From Escherichia phage vB_EcoM_EC001, in sequence record MN445185.1: a stretch of DNA of 64,000 nt. The stretch is one strand, 5' to 3'. This document shows, in pieces, positions 4,252 through 62,839 of the stretch. The position numbers were made by a program, and so were the translations under genes. Position 1 is the stretch's first letter. Every line of letters begins with the position of its first letter. A model generated the notes under the pieces. That model was not told where the DNA came from. It was given only the letters and a program-made list of their open reading frames with translations, and made no database searches.

Positions 4252-4282
4252 AATATCTCAGATATATATTACTTAGGTGAGA
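4252..4282 (+). promoter_or_regulatory. conserved promoter-like element, TATATTAC class
   Basis: …CTCAGATATATATTACTTAGGTGAG… right after stop of 3664..4251; near-identical copy at 62806; core matches phiKZ early-promoter element as I recall it. Confidence 0.45.
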
Positions 4283-4356: not shown

Positions 4357-4758
4357 ATGACTATCAAGAAGTTCTTACAAACAGTAGTAGTTCTGGCCGC
4401 ATGTGGTATCGCAGCAACTTATGCTTTCGATAAGCCAGACGTGACTGAATACGTATCAGCGGATTCCGATTACGGTATTGCACCGAATGAAAAACCGGAA
4501 CTGATGCGTGAGGTCGAACAGTTACAAATCTACAAACTGACGGATGGTAAGAACTGCACAGGGCTGGTTATCGCTGATAAGAAACTGAAAATGTATCAGC
4601 GGTTAATCGACATATCGTGCGATCAACCAAAAGTCACCTCGGTCAGTGTATCGCCGTTGGAATTGCCAGATCTGGTTGCTGTGAGTTTTTATCACAACGA
4701 TGTGCTCGTTGGTCGCATCACCCTCAATCGTGGAGATATCAAAAATGAAATGCAATAA
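4357..4758 (+). CDS. putative lipoprotein (133 aa)
   Basis: N-terminal signal peptide with lipobox-like VLAAC-G. Confidence 0.6.
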   Translation: MTIKKFLQTVVVLAACGIAATYAFDKPDVTEYVSADSDYGIAPNEKPELMREVEQLQIYKLTDGKNCTGLVIADKKLKMYQRLIDISCDQPKVTSVSVSPLELPDLVAVSFYHNDVLVGRITLNRGDIKNEMQ

Positions 4759-6095: not shown

Positions 6096-6168
6096 GTGAG
6101 ATGACGACCCATCTCACTTTGGCCCTGCGGTGATTTCCCCAACACTTAGCCGCAGGGTCCTTTTTAAT
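6096..6168 (+). terminator. tandem hairpins, second followed by T-run
   Basis: GTGAGAT…ATCTCAC, then CCCTGCGG-(19-nt loop)-CCGCAGGG followed by TCCTTTTT, which runs into the TTAATCGAC motif. Confidence 0.55.
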
Positions 6169-7473: not shown

Positions 7474-9984
7474 ATGCTCAAGGTCGAACGTATCATTTTG
7501 AAAGGATTTACCGGCATGGGGTTACATGAAATCGAAACGTTTGATTTCACCCTCAAGTCCACCGTTACCATCATCCTCGGCGGTAACGGCTGCGGTAAAA
7601 CAAGCCTCCTATCTGTTTTTCTCCCCATAGCTCCAGCAAAATCTGAATTCCGTGAAGGTGGTTCTTACACTAACTACGCGTTAGTCGGGGACGACCGTCT
7701 TAAGTTTGAAGTCCTGCGTCGTGGGTCTTCTCTGTCTTGTAGTATCTTCAACATCACTAAAGGTGTTTCCGTCGTAGACTCGGTAAACGCCAAAGTTTAC
7801 AACTCCATGGTGGAGCAATTAACCGGAATCACCAAAGAAATCAAAGAGTTAATTAATGGTGAGACCTTATTAACTGACGCCACTACCGAAGTTCGTCGTA
7901 AATGGTTTACGTTAATGTCAGAATCTGATCTGACGTACGTTGTTGGTTGTTATCGTCGTCTGCGTAAACTCGCTTCCAGTTTAAGTGGGGCCATTGAGCA
8001 CACCGGCCGTAAAATCGGTGAGGCAAAAATGCGCGTGGTGGACGATGAAGAAGATCGTGCACGTTTGGAAGTTCGTTTGAAAGAACTGGACGTTGAGCTT
8101 CAGGAACTAAACCGCACCATTGAAGCGAGACCCGGTTTAGATAACGCCGTTTCGGTTGATAGTATCCGGAAACGCATTGCTTCGTTGCAACCGGCTGTAA
8201 AACTCATTATGGAGCGTTATGGTGTTCTGCCTTCTGACGAACTGATTAACGAGTTTCAAAGTCGTGTAGTTGCCTGGCGTGAGCAAGCTGCCTCTGCTGA
8301 AACTGAATGCAACATGTACAATAAAGAGTTGTCACAGCTACTGGATGAGGAGTCGCGTCAAGCGTATCTGATGCGCAACCATACCGGTCTAAAACAAACA
8401 ATCGACAGCTTAAAACAGGAACTGGCAACGTTCCAACAGAACTGGATGTTCCCGGCTCTGTTTGAAGGTACCCGCATCGATGTGGATAGCATTCAGAACG
8501 CGTTAAACGATGCCTGTAACTGGAATTTACCGTTGTCCATGCATCTGGACCAGTTAAAGACAACAGAGCGCCTGGGAGCGTTAGAGAAGCGTTTACAGGG
8601 TATGGATTTAACCTCTGCGGGTCTATCTGAAAAGCTGCAACGTTGTGAGAATGTGCTACACGGTTTATACCACGACCGTCAACACTTCTTAGAAACTGCA
8701 GAAGTTGATTGTCCACAGTGTAACCACCGTTTCCGTCCTGGGATTCGTAAGTCGTTACCTGAAATTGAAAAGGCCATCAACGATAATGAAGGTTGGAAGA
8801 AGCAGCTGAAAGACGAAATGGATAGTCTTTTGCGTGACCGCAAAGAGATTGAAGAGGACGTCCGTAGCTTACGTACGATTCGCGAAATCGTCATGTCGTA
8901 TTCCAATCATCCCGTTGTCGGTTTGTTTTTCCGTAAACTGCAGGAGCTGGATATCTTCACCACGGCGCGGGATCGTTACGGTGCCATTGCACGTGCCTTT
9001 ACTGAAGAGTTAGATTCGGCCATGATGTATCTGCGTCAATCGGCGAAGCTTGCAACAGCGGAACGGGAATGGCAAGAGGCTGTTGCCGCAGTAGGTAACG
9101 TTGATGGTGCGCTGAGCCAGAAAATTGAACATATCCGTTCACAACTGGATGGGGCTAACCGTCGACTGATAGAATACCGCAGACAAGCCAATGAGCTGGA
9201 ACGCGAAACCACCCAACTGCAACAAACCAAAGAAGCAATCGAACGTTTCCAAAAGGGCTACGAACATCTGGTATCGGAAATGAACATCTCCGTTAACAAC
9301 GTCGTGGTTCGCGAGTTGTTAAACCGACGCGAAGCGAAGCTCGATGCGTATACTTCCGCTCGTGAACGGTTTCGTCAAATGGAAGGGGCTATTGCACGTT
9401 TAGCGGAACTGGAAAAAGAGCAAGCTGAATTGCTTAAAGAGCATCACCATGCCAGATTGATTATCAATGCCGTCTCACCCGAAAAAGGATTATTGCGTCG
9501 TTACTTTTATGCTGCGATTACCCGCATCATGGATTTAATGAATCGGTATATCGAAATGGTGTGGGCATATCCGATGCAGGTTATTCCATGCGATCTAACC
9601 GACGGGGATTTGGATTATACTTTCCCGGTACGATTAAAAGACCATGAAGAACTGGTGCCGGATGTGAAGAAAGGTTCGAAGGCACAGCGTATTATCTTTA
9701 ACATGATGTTTCGTTTAACGGCGTATAAAGCGCTTGGTTTACAAAACTATCCTTTGTTATTGGATGAACCCTCTGAAGGCATGGATGAGGAACACAAAAA
9801 TCGACTGGTCAACTTCATTAAATCGTTGGCGTTGTCGGGAGAGTTTTCTCAATTGCTGGTCGTTTCGCATGAAGCGGAAGTTCATTCTAAACTTAACGAA
9901 GCCACCTACTGTGTCGTGGAGCCAGAAGGTGTAACGCTTCCACCGGTTTATAACGAAGGGGTAATAATCAAATATGCATCATAA
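7474..9984 (+). CDS. Rad50/SbcC-like SMC-family ATPase (836 aa)
   Basis: N-terminal Walker A GGNGCGKTS; long predicted coiled-coil; central CPQC (zinc-hook-like); C-terminal Walker B/D-loop LLLDEPSEGMD and VVSHE. Assigned by motif architecture only. Confidence 0.75.
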   Translation: MLKVERIILKGFTGMGLHEIETFDFTLKSTVTIILGGNGCGKTSLLSVFLPIAPAKSEFREGGSYTNYALVGDDRLKFEVLRRGSSLSCSIFNITKGVSVVDSVNAKVYNSMVEQLTGITKEIKELINGETLLTDATTEVRRKWFTLMSESDLTYVVGCYRRLRKLASSLSGAIEHTGRKIGEAKMRVVDDEEDRARLEVRLKELDVELQELNRTIEARPGLDNAVSVDSIRKRIASLQPAVKLIMERYGVLPSDELINEFQSRVVAWREQAASAETECNMYNKELSQLLDEESRQAYLMRNHTGLKQTIDSLKQELATFQQNWMFPALFEGTRIDVDSIQNALNDACNWNLPLSMHLDQLKTTERLGALEKRLQGMDLTSAGLSEKLQRCENVLHGLYHDRQHFLETAEVDCPQCNHRFRPGIRKSLPEIEKAINDNEGWKKQLKDEMDSLLRDRKEIEEDVRSLRTIREIVMSYSNHPVVGLFFRKLQELDIFTTARDRYGAIARAFTEELDSAMMYLRQSAKLATAEREWQEAVAAVGNVDGALSQKIEHIRSQLDGANRRLIEYRRQANELERETTQLQQTKEAIERFQKGYEHLVSEMNISVNNVVVRELLNRREAKLDAYTSARERFRQMEGAIARLAELEKEQAELLKEHHHARLIINAVSPEKGLLRRYFYAAITRIMDLMNRYIEMVWAYPMQVIPCDLTDGDLDYTFPVRLKDHEELVPDVKKGSKAQRIIFNMMFRLTAYKALGLQNYPLLLDEPSEGMDEEHKNRLVNFIKSLALSGEFSQLLVVSHEAEVHSKLNEATYCVVEPEGVTLPPVYNEGVIIKYAS

Positions 9985-10165
9985 AGGTTGGCGCTTATGG
10001 GCTTGGTGGGGTTTTCAGTTCCTTCAGTTTGTTGTGATGGTACTGTACCTCTCCTTTTGTGCAACCGTAGTGGTTATCGCTGCGGTCGTTTATTTAGCTG
10101 CTGCTCTTAAAGAACGTCTGTTCGACACGCGTTGTGAGTGGCGAGATATAGGAGAACGGACATGA
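9974..10165 (+). CDS. small membrane protein (63 aa)
   Basis: Overlaps end of upstream gene; strongly hydrophobic core with charged C-terminus; weak SD. Confidence 0.4.
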   Translation: MHHKGWRLWAWWGFQFLQFVVMVLYLSFCATVVVIAAVVYLAAALKERLFDTRCEWRDIGERT

Positions 10166-10266
10166 TTGAAGGTATCGTATTAACCGGTATTGCACTGTGG
10201 TTGATTCGTGGTGCCTGGGGTTGGATTATCCGCACGAAAGGATGGGCATTCCATGGCAAGACGTAA
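10162..10266 (+). CDS. small membrane peptide (34 aa)
   Basis: ATGA overlap with upstream ORF; AGGAG 7 nt upstream; hydrophobic MIEGIVLTGIALWLIRGAWGWII…; below ORF-track size cutoff. Confidence 0.4.
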   Translation: MIEGIVLTGIALWLIRGAWGWIIRTKGWAFHGKT

Positions 10267-10444
10267 ACCTGGTCGTTTAAAGTTTTGGGCAGTTGTGGTA
10301 ATGCACACTGTGGTGCTACTCGGTATTTTCATGTCTCGCGCTACGCCTGCCTTTTGGGGCTTAGTTGTTTTGGTGTTCTTAGAAGGGGTTTACTTCGGTA
10401 ATCTGTGGAGCAAGCCCCCCGCGTTTAAGGGACCCGGCTTATGA
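10253..10444 (+). CDS. small membrane protein (63 aa)
   Basis: ATG inside track ORF 10208..10444; basic N-terminus then two hydrophobic stretches; overlaps previous peptide by 14 nt. Confidence 0.4.
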   Translation: MARRKPGRLKFWAVVVMHTVVLLGIFMSRATPAFWGLVVLVFLEGVYFGNLWSKPPAFKGPGL

Positions 10445-10572
10445 CAGTCGTGAATAGTGTCAACGCAGCCATGATTGCAACAGGTGCGTATGATGGTGCC
10501 ACCTGGACAGACCTTGGCATTACGATTATCATCTGTGCAATCGGAGCATTTCTGGCATCATGGTTATTTTAG
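10441..10572 (+). CDS. small membrane peptide (43 aa)
   Basis: ATGA overlap with upstream ORF; hydrophobic C-terminal half. Confidence 0.4.
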   Translation: MTVVNSVNAAMIATGAYDGATWTDLGITIIICAIGAFLASWLF

Positions 10573-10667
10573 TGAAGTGGGTTGGGTGTATCATCTGTAG
10601 CCTGGTACTAGGAGCAGGCGCATACGCCCTAGGCGCAATCCTTGCATTGACGCAAGGTTGGTTTTAA
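10572..10667 (+). CDS. possible small membrane peptide (31 aa, GTG start)
   Basis: GTG overlapping upstream stop (TAGTG); hydrophobic throughout; no SD, so weak. Confidence 0.25.
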   Translation: MKWVGCIICSLVLGAGAYALGAILALTQGWF

Positions 10668-11004
10668 CAGGAGGGTAATTACGAAGTGGGAGAAGTATCA
10701 TGTAACAGTGAAACAGTCTCTGATCCCGTGGTCGTGGGTTCAGGGGCGGCCGTGCCAACCCGGCGTATCGTTCTTTCGAGCGCGGGGATGGCTATAGGGT
10801 CTTCAAAGAACCTTCTAGCAGACATCGCGGAAGTCTGCGGGCCGGATGATTTTGCAGTTTCACGTACAGTCGGGGAAGACTGGCGTGGTAATCAGAAGCG
10901 CCATGAGCGAATGTGGCGACGGAAGGTTACCTCAGCATCGCAGCGTTTTCAACGACGTTGTTGATCAAAGACACGGTTCCGATAGAGAACTGGTCTTTAC
11001 CTGC

Positions 11005-11042
11005 AGCGGTATACACCGCTTAAGTTTACCGGTAAACTTAAG
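11005..11042. repeat. 16-bp inverted repeat abutting a perfect 24-bp palindrome
   Basis: AGCGGT-atac-ACCGCT (11005-11020) overlapping by 2 nt CTTAAGTTTACC|GGTAAACTTAAG (11019-11042); no T/A-run on either side; ~70 nt upstream of ATG 11111. Confidence 0.6.
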
Positions 11043-11110
11043 AAAACACAAACGCAATTCTTCGTTACTCGCTTTCATCGCAGGTGAAAGCTCACTTAGG
11101 AATTCAGCTC

Positions 11111-11599
11111 ATGGCCGAAATTGTCATTCTTTCCTCATCCTCAGATTTAACGGAAGCACAAAATAAACAGCTGTTGGGGCTGCATTATAAATTTCTGAAC
11201 CACCAACGTACCATACTCCATATCGAAAAAGGTGAGATTCCGAACCTCACTCTGGAGAAACTGTTGGCGGGGAACCGTGCTTGTGTTGCTCTGGAAGGGG
11301 GTACCCCTGTTGGTTACTGTTTGTATCGCGTAATCGCTGGGGTTCTGAAGATTCGTACGATGTTCGTGTCTGAAATGGCACGCCGTCGTAAAACGATGAC
11401 GCAGATTTTTGATGCGCTTGATGTGAATGAACGGTTCACCAGTGCGCATGGGGGAATATACGCTTGCCAGGAAGCTGGTATTGCGTTCTTTACCGCTCGC
11501 GGTTTTGACAAGACCGTCTCTACAGACGGACAATGGCTTGAATTTAAGAAGCAGGTTCCTGCGGAAGCAGATGAACCTTTAAGGACTGCGGTAGCGTAG
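11111..11599 (+). CDS. hypothetical protein, possibly GNAT-like acetyltransferase (162 aa)
   Basis: Start moved from track ORF 11084 (GTG) to ATG 11111; C-terminal ...AGIAFFTARGFDK resembles GNAT motif B; assignment weak. Confidence 0.5.
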   Translation: MAEIVILSSSSDLTEAQNKQLLGLHYKFLNHQRTILHIEKGEIPNLTLEKLLAGNRACVALEGGTPVGYCLYRVIAGVLKIRTMFVSEMARRRKTMTQIFDALDVNERFTSAHGGIYACQEAGIAFFTARGFDKTVSTDGQWLEFKKQVPAEADEPLRTAVA

Positions 11600-11627
11600 T
11601 CCTGTTTTAGCACTCCTTACGATTATG

Positions 11628-11653
11628 CCTCACTATGAGTGGGGTATTTTTTA
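11628..11653 (+). terminator. probable intrinsic terminator
   Basis: CCTCACT-atg-AGTGGGG (one G-U) then TATTTTTTA; a second weaker hairpin spans the upstream stop codon. Confidence 0.45.
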
Positions 11654-11670
11654 CGCGAGGAGTGCTATTT

Positions 11671-11880
11671 ATGTTTCACCGTCCTGGGTTTTCAGCTTTA
11701 AACACCGATGTCTGTTGGGCTGAGTACGAACGGGCGAAGGAGTTCTTACCCGTAAATCCAAAACACATCAACGTGGGTACTATCGGGCGTGTTGCGTTTG
11801 ATGATACTCCGCTGAGTACGTGTATTAAAGCAGCGCTTGGTACGCTGCCGGCGTCTATAGTTATTGAGGAATTAAAATGA
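11671..11880 (+). CDS. hypothetical protein (69 aa)
   Basis: Start moved to ATG 11671 with GAGGAG SD 10 nt upstream. Confidence 0.5.
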   Translation: MFHRPGFSALNTDVCWAEYERAKEFLPVNPKHINVGTIGRVAFDDTPLSTCIKAALGTLPASIVIEELK

Positions 11881-12395
11881 CGGACATTCGTGTTGACATA
11901 TATGGGGAAATTCATACCACGGCCGATCGTAATCGTGTTGAATGGGCGATCATCGATAACCATCGGAAAAAACCATACGATTTTTTACTGTGTGAAGAAC
12001 TGGGGCCGTATGAATATCACACTGCAAAAGCGCAAGATAAGGCATTAAAGGAGAAGATGTACTCTATTGGGCCCATGGGGCTGGAGTTGGCTAAGAAACT
12101 CGGCATCCCTGCTATTGGGATCGATGACTGGAGCGATGCAACCTACGCTAAAGATATCAAGGATAAAAAGGGAAGGGCTGTAAACTTTAGCCGTTCTTTT
12201 TATATTCGTGAAGCTAAAATGGTTGAAAAAATTAAAAAGTATATGGCAAAAGGACGTTGTGCTGTTATGCTCGGCGACTCACACTTGCGCACCACGAAAA
12301 CCAAAGAGCTTGGTGGTGCGTCCCTTATCTGGGAAACATTTAAGGATAATCCTGAAGTGAAGTTTCACAGGAGCCCTAAACGCGAGATTGATTAA
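11877..12395 (+). CDS. hypothetical protein (172 aa)
   Basis: ATGA overlap with upstream gene; GAGGA SD. Confidence 0.6.
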   Translation: MTDIRVDIYGEIHTTADRNRVEWAIIDNHRKKPYDFLLCEELGPYEYHTAKAQDKALKEKMYSIGPMGLELAKKLGIPAIGIDDWSDATYAKDIKDKKGRAVNFSRSFYIREAKMVEKIKKYMAKGRCAVMLGDSHLRTTKTKELGGASLIWETFKDNPEVKFHRSPKREID

Positions 12396-12413
12396 ATCTA
12401 AAGGAGCATTAAA

Positions 12414-12836
12414 ATGGTTACCGCTATTCGCGAAACAAAATCACTATACGATCATTTATCAGAAGAAGAAACAGCCTTATTCTACGACCTGTTACCTGAA
12501 ACCAAAGCAAACGTTCAGTGGTGGTTACGTTTAGCGTTACGTGATAAAGTTGGGGAAACGCCGGTTAGTATTCTCGCGCACACGTTGGACATGACGCCCA
12601 TGATTGAAATCGCGATTACCCGCCCTAAATTCTGGCGGCCTGGTATGGTGCGTGAGGCGTATCTACTCCAACGCTTAGGTGTTGACCCGGAGAAGTGTTG
12701 GCGTAAGATGGACGACCATCGCTACCGTGAAGAAATTACGAATAGCCTCAACACTATGTTGGCAATGAAACGACTCGGTATCGAACACGAAGGTTTCGAG
12801 TCAGCGGTACAAACCTGGGTGAAAAGGAATAGCTAA
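12414..12836 (+). CDS. hypothetical protein (140 aa)
   Basis: AAAGGAG SD 8 nt upstream. Confidence 0.6.
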   Translation: MVTAIRETKSLYDHLSEEETALFYDLLPETKANVQWWLRLALRDKVGETPVSILAHTLDMTPMIEIAITRPKFWRPGMVREAYLLQRLGVDPEKCWRKMDDHRYREEITNSLNTMLAMKRLGIEHEGFESAVQTWVKRNS

Positions 12837-20362: not shown

Positions 20363-21876
20363 TGAAAGACGTCGACGTAGCGGTTATTTATACCGATGGT
20401 AGTCATACTGAGTCCCCGAAAGGTTCGGGGGCTGGTATTCATGGTTATTTATTCAACAACGGAGATTTGGAAGACAGTCAGGCTTATAGCCATCCGGGTG
20501 TTTCAGAACGGATTACCACTGTTGGATACAAAAAAGTGCCGCAGGATGTGAAGTGTCCGGAGTTGCCGGACACCGTTCAATTTGTCGACGCCGTTATTCC
20601 CGTTCCGAAAGAGTTCTACTCAGATGTGGGCGAGTTAATCGCCTTCATCACGTTGTTTGAGAACGCACCCTTCCGCGCGAAGAACTATATTATCTACGTG
20701 GATGCCAGTTATGTTGTAAACACTTTTAACGAGTGGATAGACGGCTGGCATAAACGTGGTTGGGTTCGTGCTGACGGTACTCCGCTGGCGAACAAAGAAC
20801 TTATTGTTCGTATCTGGGAAATCAAACAGCAGATGAAAAAAGAAGGACGGGGTGTTAAGGTTATCAAAATCAAAGGACACTCCGGCCACTACGGTAACGA
20901 CCGGGCGGACGAATTGGCTAGAAAAGGTTCAGCTATCACAGCGACCAACGACGGCGTTCCATATCAGCCGTACTGGTCGAAGGATGAGTTGCCTGCATCC
21001 GCGGAACCCGAGCCCATCGCCGCTGGGATGAACCTTGCGGCATATCCGCCGATTTGTACGGTTAAATATTGCTATCCGTTGGTGAACGAGGACCATCCTA
21101 CTGTAAAAGTGAAAGATGAAACTTTCTATTACATGTTTGGTGGCAACCATGCAAAGAACAAGGACGACTTGGTGTTTATTGGGAAAATGATTCCTGATGC
21201 ACACTTTTCCGTAATGTTCACTAAACAACCGTGGGATAACATCTACACGATTGTAAACAACCACGCCGCCCTGGCATGGAAAGATACACCGAAGATGCGG
21301 CAGTATGATCCAATCGGCGTTGTTAACAATGAGTTCGTTAAACGTAAGAAGTTCGTTGACGTGGCAGGTGATGGATTACCAGCAGACAAGATGCATTTCA
21401 GTGGAGAAGATTCCAACGTCTGGTTCTTTGAAGACCTGGCCATCTCCAGAATGCTTCGCCCACCCTTATTGTCGTACCGTGCGCTGGATATTCGTGACGA
21501 ACTCGCTACAACGTTGCGTGATGTTCTGCATCAGGAAAAGGGTTATGTCTTAAACGATATTACCGACTTGCTATTCGACGACAAAGGTAAACCTGTCAAG
21601 GAATACTACCGCAGCGTCGATAAGTCAATAACGTTAAAGATTGACTTTCCGATGGGTAAACGACCTGTCTCGGTTATTTTGACGCGTGGTATCGATATTC
21701 CATCGCGTACGGAAATCAACCGTATTAAAGAACCGGAAGGCCGTTATTACATCGCGGTGTGTCGTCCTGAAAAATACTACATCCGTTACTTCTTAATCTA
21801 TATCGGTAAAGAGTATCATGGGTTGTGGTGTGCGTATTACGCAAACCGTCGCATACTGCGAGAAGAAGAGGTGTAA
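20362..21876 (+). CDS. RNase H (type 1) domain fused to ~310-aa C-terminal domain of unknown function (504 aa)
   Basis: N-terminal ~190 aa align by eye to E. coli RNase HI catalytic motifs: VIYTDGS, ELIAF (Glu), IIYVDASYV (Asp), WHKRGW, KIKGHSGHYGNDRADELARKG. Confidence 0.85.
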   Translation: MKDVDVAVIYTDGSHTESPKGSGAGIHGYLFNNGDLEDSQAYSHPGVSERITTVGYKKVPQDVKCPELPDTVQFVDAVIPVPKEFYSDVGELIAFITLFENAPFRAKNYIIYVDASYVVNTFNEWIDGWHKRGWVRADGTPLANKELIVRIWEIKQQMKKEGRGVKVIKIKGHSGHYGNDRADELARKGSAITATNDGVPYQPYWSKDELPASAEPEPIAAGMNLAAYPPICTVKYCYPLVNEDHPTVKVKDETFYYMFGGNHAKNKDDLVFIGKMIPDAHFSVMFTKQPWDNIYTIVNNHAALAWKDTPKMRQYDPIGVVNNEFVKRKKFVDVAGDGLPADKMHFSGEDSNVWFFEDLAISRMLRPPLLSYRALDIRDELATTLRDVLHQEKGYVLNDITDLLFDDKGKPVKEYYRSVDKSITLKIDFPMGKRPVSVILTRGIDIPSRTEINRIKEPEGRYYIAVCRPEKYYIRYFLIYIGKEYHGLWCAYYANRRILREEEV

Positions 21877-21877
21877 C

Positions 21878-22618
21878 ATGTTGCGAGTCGTGAGTGAATC
21901 GCTCACGCTCCACACACAAAGTCTGATTAACTGTGTGGAGCAATACGGATGGATGTCATGGATGGCAACGAACCGTGAGTTCGGTGCTGCGCCCATGGAA
22001 GATTACGACGTGTTGTACAAGTGGGGATTTGAAGCGGCTTGTGATGTTGTGGCAGAGCTGGTTACTGAAACAATTGCGCGTTACAATGCAAGATGTGATG
22101 AACCGATGCCTAAACAAGTCCCGCCGCAAATACCTCCGCTACCGACAATCGATCGTGAGCAGTGTCGAATCTGGACAATGGAAGAGTTGTACGACGAACA
22201 CGTTAGAATGCTGAAACCGAACGAGCTAATAACCGGTGCGTTGAACTGGTTCTTACATCGTTTCTGGACAGAGTTGGTCGATGTGGCGGGTGACGAAGAT
22301 AATTGTTCTCAGGTTATTTGGTACGATCGAGCGATGTTTCATCGCAGTCTTAAAGATCGCAGTCTCTGCAACCTGTATATTGTTGACCCGTGTGAAGACA
22401 TTGTAAGGGTGGCAGAAGGTAACTCTTATTCGGACTTGGTGATGCCTGTGGTAGAAAAACCGATGGGTATTTTCCTGCAGGGAGACGCTTGGGTTTTAAC
22501 GGATGATATCTCGGGCTACCTGCTGGACCCGGATGACATTCACTCGGACGAACCTGACACCATCGAGTATTTTCACTTTACAGAACAGGCAGCACGCTTC
22601 TTGCATCTCTTAAAGTAA
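21878..22618 (+). CDS. hypothetical protein (246 aa)
   Basis: Start moved to ATG 21878 (GAGGTG SD, 1 nt after upstream stop). Confidence 0.6.
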   Translation: MLRVVSESLTLHTQSLINCVEQYGWMSWMATNREFGAAPMEDYDVLYKWGFEAACDVVAELVTETIARYNARCDEPMPKQVPPQIPPLPTIDREQCRIWTMEELYDEHVRMLKPNELITGALNWFLHRFWTELVDVAGDEDNCSQVIWYDRAMFHRSLKDRSLCNLYIVDPCEDIVRVAEGNSYSDLVMPVVEKPMGIFLQGDAWVLTDDISGYLLDPDDIHSDEPDTIEYFHFTEQAARFLHLLK

Positions 22619-40445: not shown

Positions 40446-40455
40446 AATACGTATT

Positions 40456-40489
40456 AGGGTGTCCATATGGACACCCTACTTATTTTTTT
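40456..40489 (+). terminator. intrinsic terminator
   Basis: AGGGTGTCC-atat-GGACACCCT then ACTTATTTTTTT. Confidence 0.8.
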
Positions 40490-62805: not shown

Positions 62806-62839
62806 CAAAAAGAACTGAGATATATATTACTTAGGTGAG
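62806..62839 (+). promoter_or_regulatory. conserved promoter-like element, TATATTAC class
   Basis: CAAAAAGAACTGAGATATATATTACTTAGGTGAG, downstream of a terminator and ~50 nt upstream of gene 62890. Confidence 0.45.

Follow-up and report, generated by a model that had tools for sequence, protein, structure and literature searches.

What the segment that separates a small-membrane-peptide cluster from an acetyltransferase gene does in Escherichia phage vB_EcoM_EC001, and whether the perfect 24-bp palindrome that it harbors has any part in this, are the questions raised by positions 10668-11110 of the window (the whole stretch of 64,000 nucleotides of record MN445185.1 that was analysed). A preliminary description had regarded the segment as poor in open reading frames (ORFs) and proposed that the palindrome might serve as the operator of a dimeric regulator, as a site for a nuclease or for recombination, or as a portion of a structured RNA. 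The comparisons presented here argue for a two-part composition, which we consider fairly likely: a real small gene is followed by a structured RNA spacer that tunes the acetyltransferase gene, and the palindrome arose incidentally, by a template switch.

By sequence, the window phage is a Seoulvirus, an SPN3US-like jumbo phage of the SPN3US-type giant Salmonella phages, with which it shares 96-99% identity. In both Seoulvirus and Machinavirus, an SMC-like gene is followed by small peptides, a small ORF and a GNAT gene, in this conserved order. Fourteen SPN3US-type sequences were compared, namely those of the window phage, JN03, Lh1B, eight further genomes from GenBank and three contigs from metagenomes, with Erwinia phage pEa_SNUABM_29 as the outgroup for the polarity of the palindrome. 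The three contigs came from a metagenome scan, and every one of them has the imperfect form of the repeat; scans of IMG/VR yielded SPN3US itself and a few distant loci reached via the acetyltransferase. The near-identical genomes, among which an indel is present, were aligned and their distances obtained with MAFFT. The literature on SPN3US-type phages, or on any Seoulvirus, yielded no transcriptome, promoter map or terminator map. The features of the locus are as follows.

7474..9984, upstream of the segment: SMC/SbcC-like gene
10669..10675, + strand: Shine-Dalgarno sequence AGGAGGG of the small gene, 10-11 nt 5' of GTG 10686
10686..10964, + strand: conserved small protein gene, 92 aa, GTG start, as judged from codon changes, PHROG 15402 and synteny
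10967..10998, + strand: hairpin 1, AAAGAC-a-CGGTTC / loop CGATAGA / GAACTG-GTCTTT, -13.5 kcal/mol, z=-3.9
11005..11020, + strand: hairpin 2, AGCGGT-ATAC-ACCGCT, the 16-bp inverted repeat of the preliminary description, -8.2 kcal/mol, z=-3.5
11019..11042, no strand: perfect 24-bp palindrome, a derived allele, with a variable left arm (11019-11030) and a conserved right arm (11031-11042)
11028..11068, + strand: conserved, mostly unpaired block ACCGGTAAACTTAAGAAAACACAAACGCAATTCTTCGTTAC, in all Seoulvirus lineages
11071..11091, + strand: hairpin 3, GCTTTCA(TC)-GCA-(GG)TGAAAGC, -10.7 kcal/mol, z=-3.9, ending 6 nt before the Shine-Dalgarno sequence
11098..11102, + strand: Shine-Dalgarno sequence AGGAA of the acetyltransferase gene, in a context, CACTyAGGAA, conserved across genera
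11111..11599, + strand: GNAT acetyltransferase gene, ATG 11111, Pfam Acetyltransf_1/7, PHROG 3810 (E=9e-42), annotated in SPN3US as gp075
11625..11657, + strand: terminator-like canonical hairpin and T-run just 3' of the acetyltransferase gene, probably the end of the transcription unit

The small gene and its family

The coding status of ORF 10686..10964 is apparent from its comparison with pEa_SNUABM_29, in which 13 codon changes are synonymous and 3 non-synonymous, and third codon positions hold 14 of the 19 differences; the remaining two frames have 0-2 synonymous to 13-15 non-synonymous changes. The GTG start with its Shine-Dalgarno sequence and both termini of the protein are conserved, AGGAGG or GGGAGG being retained before the GTG in pEa_SNUABM_29 and SPAsTU. 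The ORF matches the PHROG 15402 profile (E=8.6e-12), a membership also borne out by protein-level conservation and gene neighbourhood, and tblastn with the small protein detected homologues in 53 phage records, with annotated syntenic homologues in Machinavirus phages. On these comparative grounds, ORF 10686..10964 is a genuine conserved protein-coding gene, and therefore 279 of the 443 bases of the segment are coding, which is at odds with the ORF-poor character ascribed to it earlier. As judged from the codon changes, the profile match and synteny, the coding signal that the preliminary description had named as counting against its own reading is essentially there. The other ORF of the segment, 10846..11166, was considered and rejected as spurious, with in-frame stops in SPN3US, pEa_SNUABM_29 and SPAsTU.

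PHROG 15402 is a family of unknown function to which Erwinia phage Caitlin gp200 and Huxley gp201 belong. Its members share with the Seoulvirus proteins the GEDWRG motif, a basic tail with an arginine-rich C-terminal helix, and the neighbourhood, the gene always lying between the cluster of small membrane peptides and the GNAT acetyltransferase gene, whereas the Seoulvirus proteins are set apart by their GTG start and by a longer, divergent N-terminal half. Peptides found within the 92-aa product include NLLADIAEVCGPDDFAVSR and TVGEDWR. A profile search with the family among 1.84 billion proteins returned just 10 cluster representatives, and a word-indexed protein search with the small protein returned near-identical proteins only; as far as such searches reach, the family is tiny and confined to Seoulvirus, Machinavirus and jumbo phages related to them.

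The protein is modeled by AlphaFold with low confidence (pLDDT 55), and it is predicted to be mostly disordered, with an arginine-rich C-terminal helix. The Ser/Gly/Arg-rich composition of the ORF, which had been called atypical, would be explained by these properties of a small protein. Pfam searches with all family members revealed no consistent domain and no DNA-binding domain. A resemblance by eye of the Machinavirus N-termini to helix 1 of acyl carrier proteins was rejected, as Pfam gave no PP-binding match.

The small gene is unannotated or mis-annotated in most SPN3US-type records. Thus, RefSeq SPN3US gp076 and SEGD1_195 correspond to a 40-aa ORF annotated in another frame, and the Lh1B record has the spurious 106-aa frame in its place, so that a conserved 92-aa gene is absent or in the wrong frame in most records of this type, the reference genome included.

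Distribution and origin of the palindrome

The palindrome CTTAAGTTTACCGGTAAACTTAAG at 11019-11042 is perfect and without a following T-run, as had been described, and it overlaps by 2 nt the inverted repeat 11005-11020, which has a 6-bp stem. The view that it is improbable by chance also holds, since 12-bp arms occurred in none of 200 first-order Markov simulations of the window, in which the longest arm was 11, reached once. The only other palindrome with 12-bp arms in the window, at 40455-40478, is a T-tailed terminator.

Its conservation is another matter. Among the 14 SPN3US-type sequences, the palindrome is perfect only in the window phage, JN03 and Lh1B; in the 11 others (eight GenBank genomes and the three metagenome contigs), the left arm reads CTAAGC, as it does in pEa_SNUABM_29, and since the outgroup also carries it, the imperfect state is ancestral. 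This corresponds, in essence, to the lack of conservation that the preliminary description had set against its own reading. In the other Seoulvirus lineages the palindrome is degenerate, with 6-9 of 12 pairs (6-7 in pEa_SNUABM_29 and SPAsTU, where the left half-site is unrecognisable), and Machinavirus phages lack the left arm entirely. The right arm, which forms the first 12 nt of the conserved block, is invariant across all Seoulvirus lineages.

The differences that make the palindrome perfect, at 11021, 11023 and 11024, are completely linked in the 14 sequences, none of which is an intermediate with one or two of the three changes. The ancestral imperfect inverted repeat is made up of CTAAGCTTTACC and GGTAAACTTAAG as its successive halves. 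In one sub-lineage, a single concerted event would thus have turned the left arm into the exact complement of the right one; the change may be written as three fully linked differences or, equally, as a +T/-C pair. An ancestral imperfect repeat, clustered and linked changes that raise complementarity, and an unchanged donor arm form the signature of quasipalindrome template-switch mutation, and the pattern suggests that this mechanism was at work. Quasipalindrome correction via template switching is an established mutational mechanism (PMC7202029), and the cases of the thyA and lacZ QP reporters of E. coli and of T4 rII (‘Ripley’) similarly display a prior imperfect repeat, clustered differences that complement one arm, an intact donor arm and no intermediates. 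Unlike those reporter cases, the present one is a natural polymorphism among jumbo-phage isolates, whose mechanism is read from the pattern alone, and its spread to a second haplotype requires recombination or recurrence. In Lh1B, indeed, the perfect allele sits on a different flanking haplotype, the switch of which maps between 11005 and 11021. The three genomes now have the allele in common through descent, recombination or recurrence, and recurrence of the palindrome or selection for it may be what Lh1B reflects. On the sequence evidence, the palindrome itself is not a conserved functional element, and a palindrome that is both perfect and improbable by chance can result neutrally from quasipalindrome correction without being a binding site, an issue that near-identical genomes settle quickly.

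These distributions bear on the roles proposed for the palindrome as DNA. An operator function, with a dimeric DNA-binding protein as the regulator (the small basic protein encoded next to it being a candidate), would agree with a perfect dyad symmetry beyond chance located some 70-90 bp upstream of a gene start and adjoining the gene for a small arginine-rich protein, and with the weak residual symmetry retained in relatives (70% of cells paired, against at most 44% with slid partners). As in the symmetric operators of the lambda, 434 and P22 type, some 24 bp of perfect dyad symmetry lie upstream of a gene. However, in contrast with those operators, the site has a single copy and just one conserved half, and a cognate helix-turn-helix protein is not identifiable. 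In 11 of 14 near-identical genomes the left half-site is different, and beyond them it is lost or unrecognisable, so that relatives keeping the gene do not conserve both half-sites; searches for the right arm or the block with up to three mismatches in the window and the whole SPN3US genome found no second locus; and the small protein offers neither a Pfam DNA-binding domain nor a confident fold. An operator is thus very improbable.

Very improbable, too, is the prospect that the palindrome is a DNA-processing site, whether as a nuclease target, a hotspot of recombination, or a signal for packaging or replication. The SMC/SbcC-like gene just upstream and the SbcD-like gene present in SPN3US might be taken in its favor, as might the uniqueness of the right arm and block in the genome, expected of a packaging site or an origin, the Lh1B haplotype switch, and the two AflII sites and one AgeI site included in the 24-mer. 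Nevertheless, most relatives have no palindrome or an imperfect one, the 1-kb alignment has many mosaic breakpoints along its whole length and not just at this site, and there are no iterons, AT-rich unwinding region or GC-skew switch. The known substrates of SbcCD far exceed 12-bp arms in length. There are 10 copies of CTTAAG for 12.8 expected, so that the motif is neither avoided nor enriched; avoidance of CTTAAG as a restriction site was rejected on the same count. The operator and nuclease-site readings are accordingly not supported, nor is the terminator reading considered below, and of the three roles first proposed for the palindrome, only that of structured RNA stands, and for its neighbours only.

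Hairpins and a conserved block in the spacer

The truly non-coding part of the segment is a spacer of 146 bp, 10965-11110, that comprises, from 5' to 3', two hairpins past the stop codon, the conserved and largely single-stranded block, and a third hairpin. Covariation in related phages, a check that the preliminary description had advised, is found in hairpins 1 and 2 (10967-10998 and 11005-11020), which keep their pairing by compensatory change. Both are predicted by RNAalifold, with compensatory change in 10 of 17 pairs; in a separate covariation test, 10 of 18 pairs have double changes, 79% of cells are paired, against at most 50% with slid partners, and their covariation score was reached by none of 500 shuffles. 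Compensatory substitutions across lineages are what characterizes a conserved cis-acting RNA structure. In hairpin 1 they occur in pEa_SNUABM_29, SPAsTU and the L013/L014 lineage, the loop retaining CxxxAGA. The stem of hairpin 2 becomes AGCAGT/ACTGCT in pEa_SNUABM_29 and GGCAGT/ACTGCC in SPAsTU, with G.U pairs in SPN3US, and its loop is ATCGT in several lineages. Machinavirus phages have no hairpin 1, and at the position of hairpin 2 they have a hairpin with a similar loop. As the hairpin alignment has G.U pairs and A.C mismatches in about equal numbers, the substitution pattern alone does not prove which strand acts. Pair-breaking changes also occur in the stems among near-identical genomes (A10968T in Lh1B, C11016G in JN03, and T10998C).

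The palindrome behaves differently as RNA. Its hairpin is worth -8.4 kcal/mol in the window phage and -0.8 kcal/mol in SPN3US, the latter no better than shuffles, and support from compensatory change is limited to the conserved center of the helix.

Hairpin 3 has an equivalent of 6-10 bp in 13 of the 13 sequences examined, representing about nine distinct stems. The equivalents end 3-7 nt, mostly 6, upstream of AGGA, and the stem sequences are wholly different between lineages. The case for this hairpin rests on per-sequence folding, as the cross-genus MAFFT alignment from the block to the ATG is too noisy, and a hairpin as stable is found upstream of about 20% of the genes in the window.

The block between these structures is conserved in sequence. 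Among SPN3US-type phages, 11027-11110 has 3 variable sites in 84 nt, against 17 in the 62 nt just upstream, and the block is recognisable in Machinavirus as GGTAAAGAAGATACATACACGCAAT...ACTTCGTTCAC. The window has a single copy of it, as does the entire 240-kb SPN3US genome. L017-L019 have the block and hairpin 3 but neither hairpin 1 nor hairpin 2; there, the block and hairpin 3 stay with the second acetyltransferase copy, even within the upstream reading frame.

One may ask whether transcription ends within the spacer, the palindrome, the neighbouring hairpins or both being terminators between the two genes. Stable hairpins do lie right after the stop codon, and the palindrome at 40455-40478, which is followed by CTTATTTTTTT, similarly combines perfect 24-bp symmetry with an RNA hairpin and is a terminator stem. 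Unlike that one, the palindrome at 11019 is A/T-rich, with a stem made mainly of A.U pairs, it has no T-run, and it is missing from most relatives. The spacer hairpins likewise lack the U-tract that follows the G+C-rich stem-loop of an intrinsic terminator, their tails being TTAAGT, AAAACACA and TCACTT, whereas a GC-rich hairpin precedes the tail in each of the five CTTATTTTTT-tailed terminators that were checked in the window. Moreover, a consensus scan for sigma-70 promoters and terminators reported nothing within 10965-11110. Termination in the spacer can thus be given almost no credence.

A broader role as RNA would be that the 146-nt spacer as a whole is a discrete ligand- or protein-sensing regulatory element, riboswitch-like or similar to the lambda N/boxB system. 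Such an element would account for three covarying hairpins accompanied by the conserved CxxxAGA loop, ATCGT loop and block, and for the fold of the whole spacer (z=-3.8). Furthermore, the adjacent gene encodes an arginine-rich helix. By analogy with the reading of boxB by lambda N, the upstream-encoded C-terminal helix would read the spacer and control the acetyltransferase, and the spacer might then be an undescribed cis-regulatory RNA of the SPN3US-like and Machinavirus nucleus-forming jumbo phages; should this long shot prove true, the palindrome allele would, as a naturally occurring variant in regulation, hide part of the sequence that is recognised. A discrete sensing element is nevertheless unlikely, given the lack of hairpin 1 in Machinavirus and the presence of the block and hairpin 3 on their own in L017-L019. 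Nor did the spacer reveal an alternative (switching) structure that is conserved. An anti-Shine-Dalgarno pairing, of CUUAAG with CUUAGG, is present in the SPN3US fold but was rejected, as other lineages do not keep it, and a 5-bp pairing of the block with the start of the acetyltransferase coding sequence, seemingly covariant between the window phage and Caitlin, fails by eye in the pEa_SNUABM_9, ChrisDB and L013 sequences. Finally, cmscan of 9500-12500 at E<=10, the Rfam check that had been recommended, gave no relevant family and only two chance miRNA hits at 12.1-12.2 kb, and a scan for tRNA and tmRNA found none.

Expression of the acetyltransferase gene

The spacer probably tunes acetyltransferase expression at the RNA level. 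It would be transcribed on the + strand within a multi-gene mRNA and would set expression after transcription, through processing, stability or translation. A position inside a transcription unit agrees with the lack of the promoter-like motifs discussed below, with the uniqueness of the block, and with the canonical hairpin and T-run at 11625-11647, downstream of the acetyltransferase gene. Cleavage or the binding of a factor in the single-stranded block would leave an upstream mRNA that ends in protective 3' hairpins, and the downstream mRNA would then start with a 5' hairpin beside an exposed Shine-Dalgarno sequence. Stem-loops in intergenic regions and 5' leaders are known to set the stability and translation of mRNA segments, as in the Rhodobacter puf operon, in the E. 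coli ompA 5' stem-loop and at processing sites of T4 and T7. The spacer resembles these cases in having hairpins after a stop codon, a hairpin beside the downstream ribosome-binding site and a single-stranded A/U-rich linker between them, with pairing maintained by compensatory change while the sequence drifts. In contrast with them, its linker is far more conserved in sequence than a generic RNase E site needs to be. The stems of the spacer, at 6-12 bp, are too short for RNase III.

Two observations sit less well with this post-transcriptional role. A conserved block of high sequence and low structure conservation resembles a promoter or an operator acting at the DNA level, and the allele of the window phage is viable although it hides the initial 12 nt of the block in an RNA hairpin. 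The viability of that allele fits slightly better with recognition at the DNA level, or with the dispensability of these 12 nt, than with a need for single-stranded RNA.

These considerations lead to the alternative that the block at 11028-11068 is a gene-specific promoter or regulator-binding site from which a separate acetyltransferase transcript starts, the palindrome again being incidental. Hairpins 1 and 2 would then be structures at the 3' end of the upstream transcript, and hairpin 3 would be the 5'-terminal stem-loop of the new mRNA. Conservation of the block in sequence rather than in structure, from Seoulvirus to Machinavirus, is what a DNA site would display; the block ends 2-8 nt before hairpin 3, which places a stabilising stem-loop at the 5' end of the transcript; the right-arm DNA is unchanged in the perfect-palindrome allele; and the block and hairpin 3 accompany the second acetyltransferase copy of L017-L019. 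A promoter that does not recur is conceivable, since an upstream consensus is all but lacking in the late promoters of phiKZ, a related phage (PMC7598289). On the other hand, the uniqueness of the block in the 240-kb SPN3US genome, where recognisable promoter-like motifs recur 6-12 times, indicates that it is not a generic promoter. The block also lacks the TATG or AT-rich -10-like element of phiKZ-type RNA polymerases, no sigma-70-like site was found in the spacer, and hairpins 1 and 2 do not end in the T-rich tail seen in the five CTTATTTTTT-tailed terminators. None of the three promoter-like motifs that recur in this phage group (AGATATATATTAC, GATAGATATTATCT and TTAATCGACYATTA) lies in the spacer. 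Between 4272 and 13531 of the window, there is no copy of the first two and a sole copy of TTAATCGACYATTA, at 6164, and their genome-wide copies in SPN3US lie elsewhere than at this locus. A promoter or regulator site in the block is thus conceivable though rather doubtful, and control at the RNA level remains the preferred account of the spacer.

These findings overturn no current understanding. The spacer is a reasonable target for the study of post-transcriptional control in nucleus-forming phages. It is among the few non-coding stretches conserved across jumbo-phage genera, and it is better conserved than the proteins encoded on either side, whose identity between genera is about 40%.

Gene Context and the Small Gene

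The 1-kb region around the palindrome matched about 30 Salmonella, Escherichia, and Proteus jumbo phages (Seoulvirus) at 94-99.4% identity, with JN03 as the top match and SPN3US at 97.5%. By annotation, these phiKZ-related phages encode their own multisubunit RNA polymerases, a property for which a review is also cited (PMC7598289).

Genes around the segment 10668-11110
7474..9984, + strand, SMC/SbcC-like gene, first in the local gene order
between this gene and the segment, + strand, several tiny membrane peptides
ATG at 11111, + strand, GNAT acetyltransferase gene (Pfam and PHROG 3810 matches), directly after the segment
further downstream of the acetyltransferase gene, macro-domain gene and transglycosylase

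The product of 7474..9984 is an 836-aa SMC/Rad50/SbcC-like protein with a CPQC zinc-hook-like motif. Its gene is followed at 9974-10667 by four or five overlapping genes for hydrophobic peptides of 35-78 aa, an arrangement conserved in Seoulvirus and Machinavirus, and an SbcD-like partner is encoded some 150 kb away (SPN3US gp239; 21020-22168 of its retrieved sequence L032). Relative to 12 other SPN3US-type sequences, the small ORF 10208..10444 lacks a T near 10370 and has an extra C at 10415 in both Lh1B and the window phage; the second indel compensates for the frameshift caused by the first, and about 15 codons of this small membrane-peptide gene are recoded. Mosaicism is clear along the 1-kb alignment of SPN3US-type sequences, and a 10467-10616 haplotype is common to Lh1B, SPFM4, and SaP7.

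The segment had been called ORF-poor in the preliminary description, wrongly, as codon changes, a PHROG match, and syntenic homologues identify ORF 10686..10964 as a conserved coding gene. An alignment of the window, SPN3US, and two lineages that are divergent within Seoulvirus (Erwinia phage pEa_SNUABM_29 and Salmonella phage SPAsTU) showed high DNA identity over about 110 nt (10853-10960). Over the last 43 codons, 14 of the 19 differences from pEa_SNUABM_29 are at third positions, and the frame of the ORF yields 13 synonymous versus 3 non-synonymous codon changes, the two alternative frames giving 0-2 and 13-15, respectively. As judged from these alignments, the substitutions at 10853-10960 fit coding sequence in the frame of the ORF. 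The Seoulvirus lineages compared have kept a GTG start, an upstream AGGAGG or GGGAGG, and an N-terminus of the form MGExxC. The small protein matched PHROG 15402 (E=8.6e-12), and tblastn detected homologues in 53 phage records; they include annotated 76-83-aa genes of Machinavirus Erwinia phages (Caitlin gp200, Huxley gp201, and others), in which the neighbors are the same as in the window. The family alignment features a GEDWRG motif and a basic tail, and just 10 members, each of 69-92 aa, were recovered when 1.84 billion representative proteins were searched with a profile. No Pfam domain was matched by the small protein, and its AlphaFold model is poor (pLDDT 55) except for a predicted arginine-rich C-terminal helix (residues 66-91).

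The segment thus harbors an under-annotated small conserved gene. Public annotations of the locus are inconsistent and probably wrong: most SPN3US-type records have nothing there, RefSeq SPN3US (gp076; 4513-4635 of its retrieved sequence, L001) and SEGD1 (SEGD1_195; 2013-2135 of L002) carry a 40-aa ORF in the third frame, and Lh1B (1947-2267 of L003) carries a spurious 106-aa frame. The 92-aa gene missed in SPN3US lies at 172111-172389, stop codon included. The overlapping ORF 10846..11166 was rejected as spurious because it is interrupted by stop codons in SPN3US, pEa_SNUABM_29, and SPAsTU.

Hairpins of the Spacer

A conserved structured spacer precedes the acetyltransferase gene.

Elements of the non-coding part, 10965-11110, in order
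10967-10998, hairpin 1, -13.5 kcal/mol, z=-3.9
11005-11020, hairpin 2, -8.2 kcal/mol, z=-3.5
11019-11042, palindrome
11028-11068, conserved block
11071-11091, hairpin 3, -10.7 kcal/mol, z=-3.9
after hairpin 3, six nucleotides, AGGAA ribosome-binding site, ATG

Hairpin 2 corresponds to the inverted repeat AGCGGT-ATAC-ACCGCT of the preliminary description, which was confirmed and forms a hairpin. Hairpins 1 and 2 were both recovered by RNAalifold from eight Seoulvirus-type sequences, with double compensatory changes in 10 of 17 pairs, such as AAGAC/GTCTT to AGGAC/GTCCT and AGAAT/ATTCT, or AGCGGT/ACCGCT to AGCAGT/ACTGCT and GGCAGT/ACTGCC. An explicit count found 79% of cells paired, versus 22-50% with the 3' partners slid by 1-3 columns, and 0 of 500 column shuffles attained the observed covariation score. 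Hairpin 1 has a stem that covaries across Seoulvirus-type lineages but a loop with closing nucleotides (10977-10989; TCC-nnn-AGAGrA) that does not vary, which suggests sequence-specific recognition. No second copy of this loop motif is present in the window.

Because its stem differs in every lineage, hairpin 3 is not amenable to sequence alignment. Folding was instead applied to the 46 nt that precede the ribosome-binding site in each of 13 sequences, representing about nine unrelated stems, from Seoulvirus, PhiEaH2-like, metagenomic, four Machinavirus, and duplicated-acetyltransferase lineages. All 13 form a hairpin of 6-10 bp that ends 3-7 nt, mostly 6, before AGGA. Hairpin 3 ranks 11th of 54 in stability among gene starts, and since equally stable upstream hairpins are not rare in the genome, the evidence for it is its fixed position despite sequence turnover.

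The Palindrome and Its Origin

The palindrome CTTAAGTTTACCGGTAAACTTAAG was confirmed at 11019-11042, and it was rightly described as unlikely by chance: 200 first-order Markov simulations of the window gave longest perfect arms of 6-11 bp, and none reached 12 bp. The only other perfect 24-mer palindrome in the window, TAGGGTGTCCATATGGACACCCTA at 40455-40478, is the stem of a canonical intrinsic terminator and is followed by CTTATTTTTTT. The tail CTTATTTTTT is common to five GC-rich hairpins in the window (tails at 2115, 3621, 26330, 40479, and 41890). That the palindrome or the hairpins of the spacer serve as a terminator fares poorly, as they lack the U-tract found on the five tailed terminators checked in the window.

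Eleven SPN3US-type genomes from GenBank were compared together with three metagenome contigs, and the perfect palindrome is confined to the window phage, JN03, and Lh1B; the other 11 sequences have CTAAGCTTTACC and GGTAAACTTAAG as arms, with 9 of 12 positions paired. The equivalents are CTAAGCAACACC and GGTATACTTAAG in pEa_SNUABM_29 (7/12 paired) and CCAAACAACACC and GGTAGACTTAAG in SPAsTU (6/12), and in Machinavirus the left arm is wholly absent. The right arm is never missing, since the conserved block begins with these 12 nt; the left arm sits in a fast-evolving portion of the spacer. The predicted folding energy is -8.4 kcal/mol for the window allele and -0.8 kcal/mol for the SPN3US allele, at best equal to shuffled sequence. 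Although 70% of cells in the helix are paired, its double-change count was matched by 160 of 500 shuffles, and in the alignment the support for pairing is the invariant ACCGGT centre and outer C...G, not covariation. By sequence comparison, the palindrome is not conserved. A functional palindrome, as proposed in the preliminary description, is not borne out, given that the small gene is coding and that the palindrome is unconserved in relatives. An operator fares poorly: one half-site is unconserved, the site is single-copy, and a DNA-binding domain was not found in the adjacent protein. So does a nuclease, recombination, or packaging site; the phage does encode SbcC- and SbcD-like proteins, but most relatives lack the palindrome, and neither site avoidance nor origin-like features were found.

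The outer hexamer CTAAGC is common to most SPN3US-type genomes and the outgroup pEa_SNUABM_29 and is therefore ancestral. In the derived allele, positions 11021, 11023, and 11024 are changed, equivalent to a T inserted and a C deleted. These differences are completely linked, with no intermediate states among the 14 SPN3US-type sequences, and each converts a mismatch into a pair while the right arm is unchanged. By our arithmetic, the odds that three independent substitutions would fall on precisely these mismatches, each with the base needed for pairing, are of the order of 1e-5. Linked, arm-templated changes are the hallmark of quasipalindrome correction by template switching in replication, a well-described mutational mechanism (PMC7202029). 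The perfect palindrome is a lineage-specific perfected quasipalindrome; template switching at the imperfect inverted repeat would have made the left arm the complement of the right arm in one event. In Lh1B, the perfect allele sits in a haplotype that otherwise resembles SPFM4: on the left side the sequence departs from the window up to 11005, and over 11013-11389 the two are identical except at 11054. SPN3US-type genomes show visible mosaicism, and the shared allele would be explained by a recombination tract that begins between 11005 and 11021; alternatively, the allele may have recurred independently in Lh1B at a quasipalindrome hotspot.

The Conserved Block and Acetyltransferase Expression

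The block is predicted to be mostly unpaired and ends with ACGCAATTCTTCGTTAC at 11068. Its sequence ACCGGTAnACTTAAG...ACAnACnCA...TTCGT shows no or almost no variation across all Seoulvirus lineages, and it is recognizable in Machinavirus (GGTAAAGAAGATACATACACGCAAT...ACTTCGTTCAC) despite flanking proteins that are just 35-44% identical between the two genera. Among the 14 SPN3US-type sequences, 3 of 84 positions vary between the palindrome centre and the ATG, versus 17 in the 62 nt before the centre.

K-mer counting over the SPN3US genome revealed three recurrent motifs, all on the + strand, AGATATATATTAC, AGATAGATATTATCT, and TTAATCGACYATTA (about 6, 9, and 9-12 copies genome-wide), which look like the promoters or leaders of SPN3US-type phages. 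One of them, AGATATATATTAC, is similar to the core of phiKZ early promoters, TATATTAC; TTAATCGACYATTA precedes start codons by 19-33 nt and an AAGGA ribosome-binding site by 6-8 nt, and it often follows AGATATATATTAC at a distance of about 40 nt. A literature search found no promoter map for Seoulvirus.

Promoter-like motifs in the window
4260-4272, 62818-62830, + strand, AGATATATATTAC
6164, 25336, 62857, 63736, + strand, TTAATCGACYATTA
22624, 31162, 13532, + strand, GATAGATATTATCT

None of the three recurrent motifs occurs in the spacer. Between 4272 and 13531 the window has no copy of AGATATATATTAC or GATAGATATTATCT and a sole copy of TTAATCGACYATTA, at 6164; a canonical hairpin with a T-run follows the acetyltransferase gene (11625-11647). 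The simplest reading would place the spacer inside a multi-gene + strand mRNA that ends after this gene.

Two hairpins after the stop codon, a putatively single-stranded conserved linker, and a hairpin abutting the next ribosome-binding site form the same architecture as bacterial and phage operon elements for segmental mRNA stability and translation control. A role at the RNA level is therefore favored, and the spacer most likely sets acetyltransferase expression relative to the upstream genes. In the main rival explanation, the block would act in DNA as a promoter or operator specific to this gene, and hairpin 3 would be the 5' stem-loop of the resulting transcript. The block is indeed conserved in sequence, not structure, and the viability of an allele that buries its first 12 nt in an RNA hairpin mildly favors this idea; on the other hand, the window and the complete SPN3US genome each contain the block a single time, and known phiKZ-type promoter features are absent from it.

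One divergent lineage (IMG/VR contigs L017, L018, and L019, ~650-1965) has two tandem copies of the acetyltransferase gene. No spacer precedes the first copy, whose start is overlapped by the small-protein gene, and the reading frame of this first copy continues across the ancestral block and hairpin 3 until the second copy begins.
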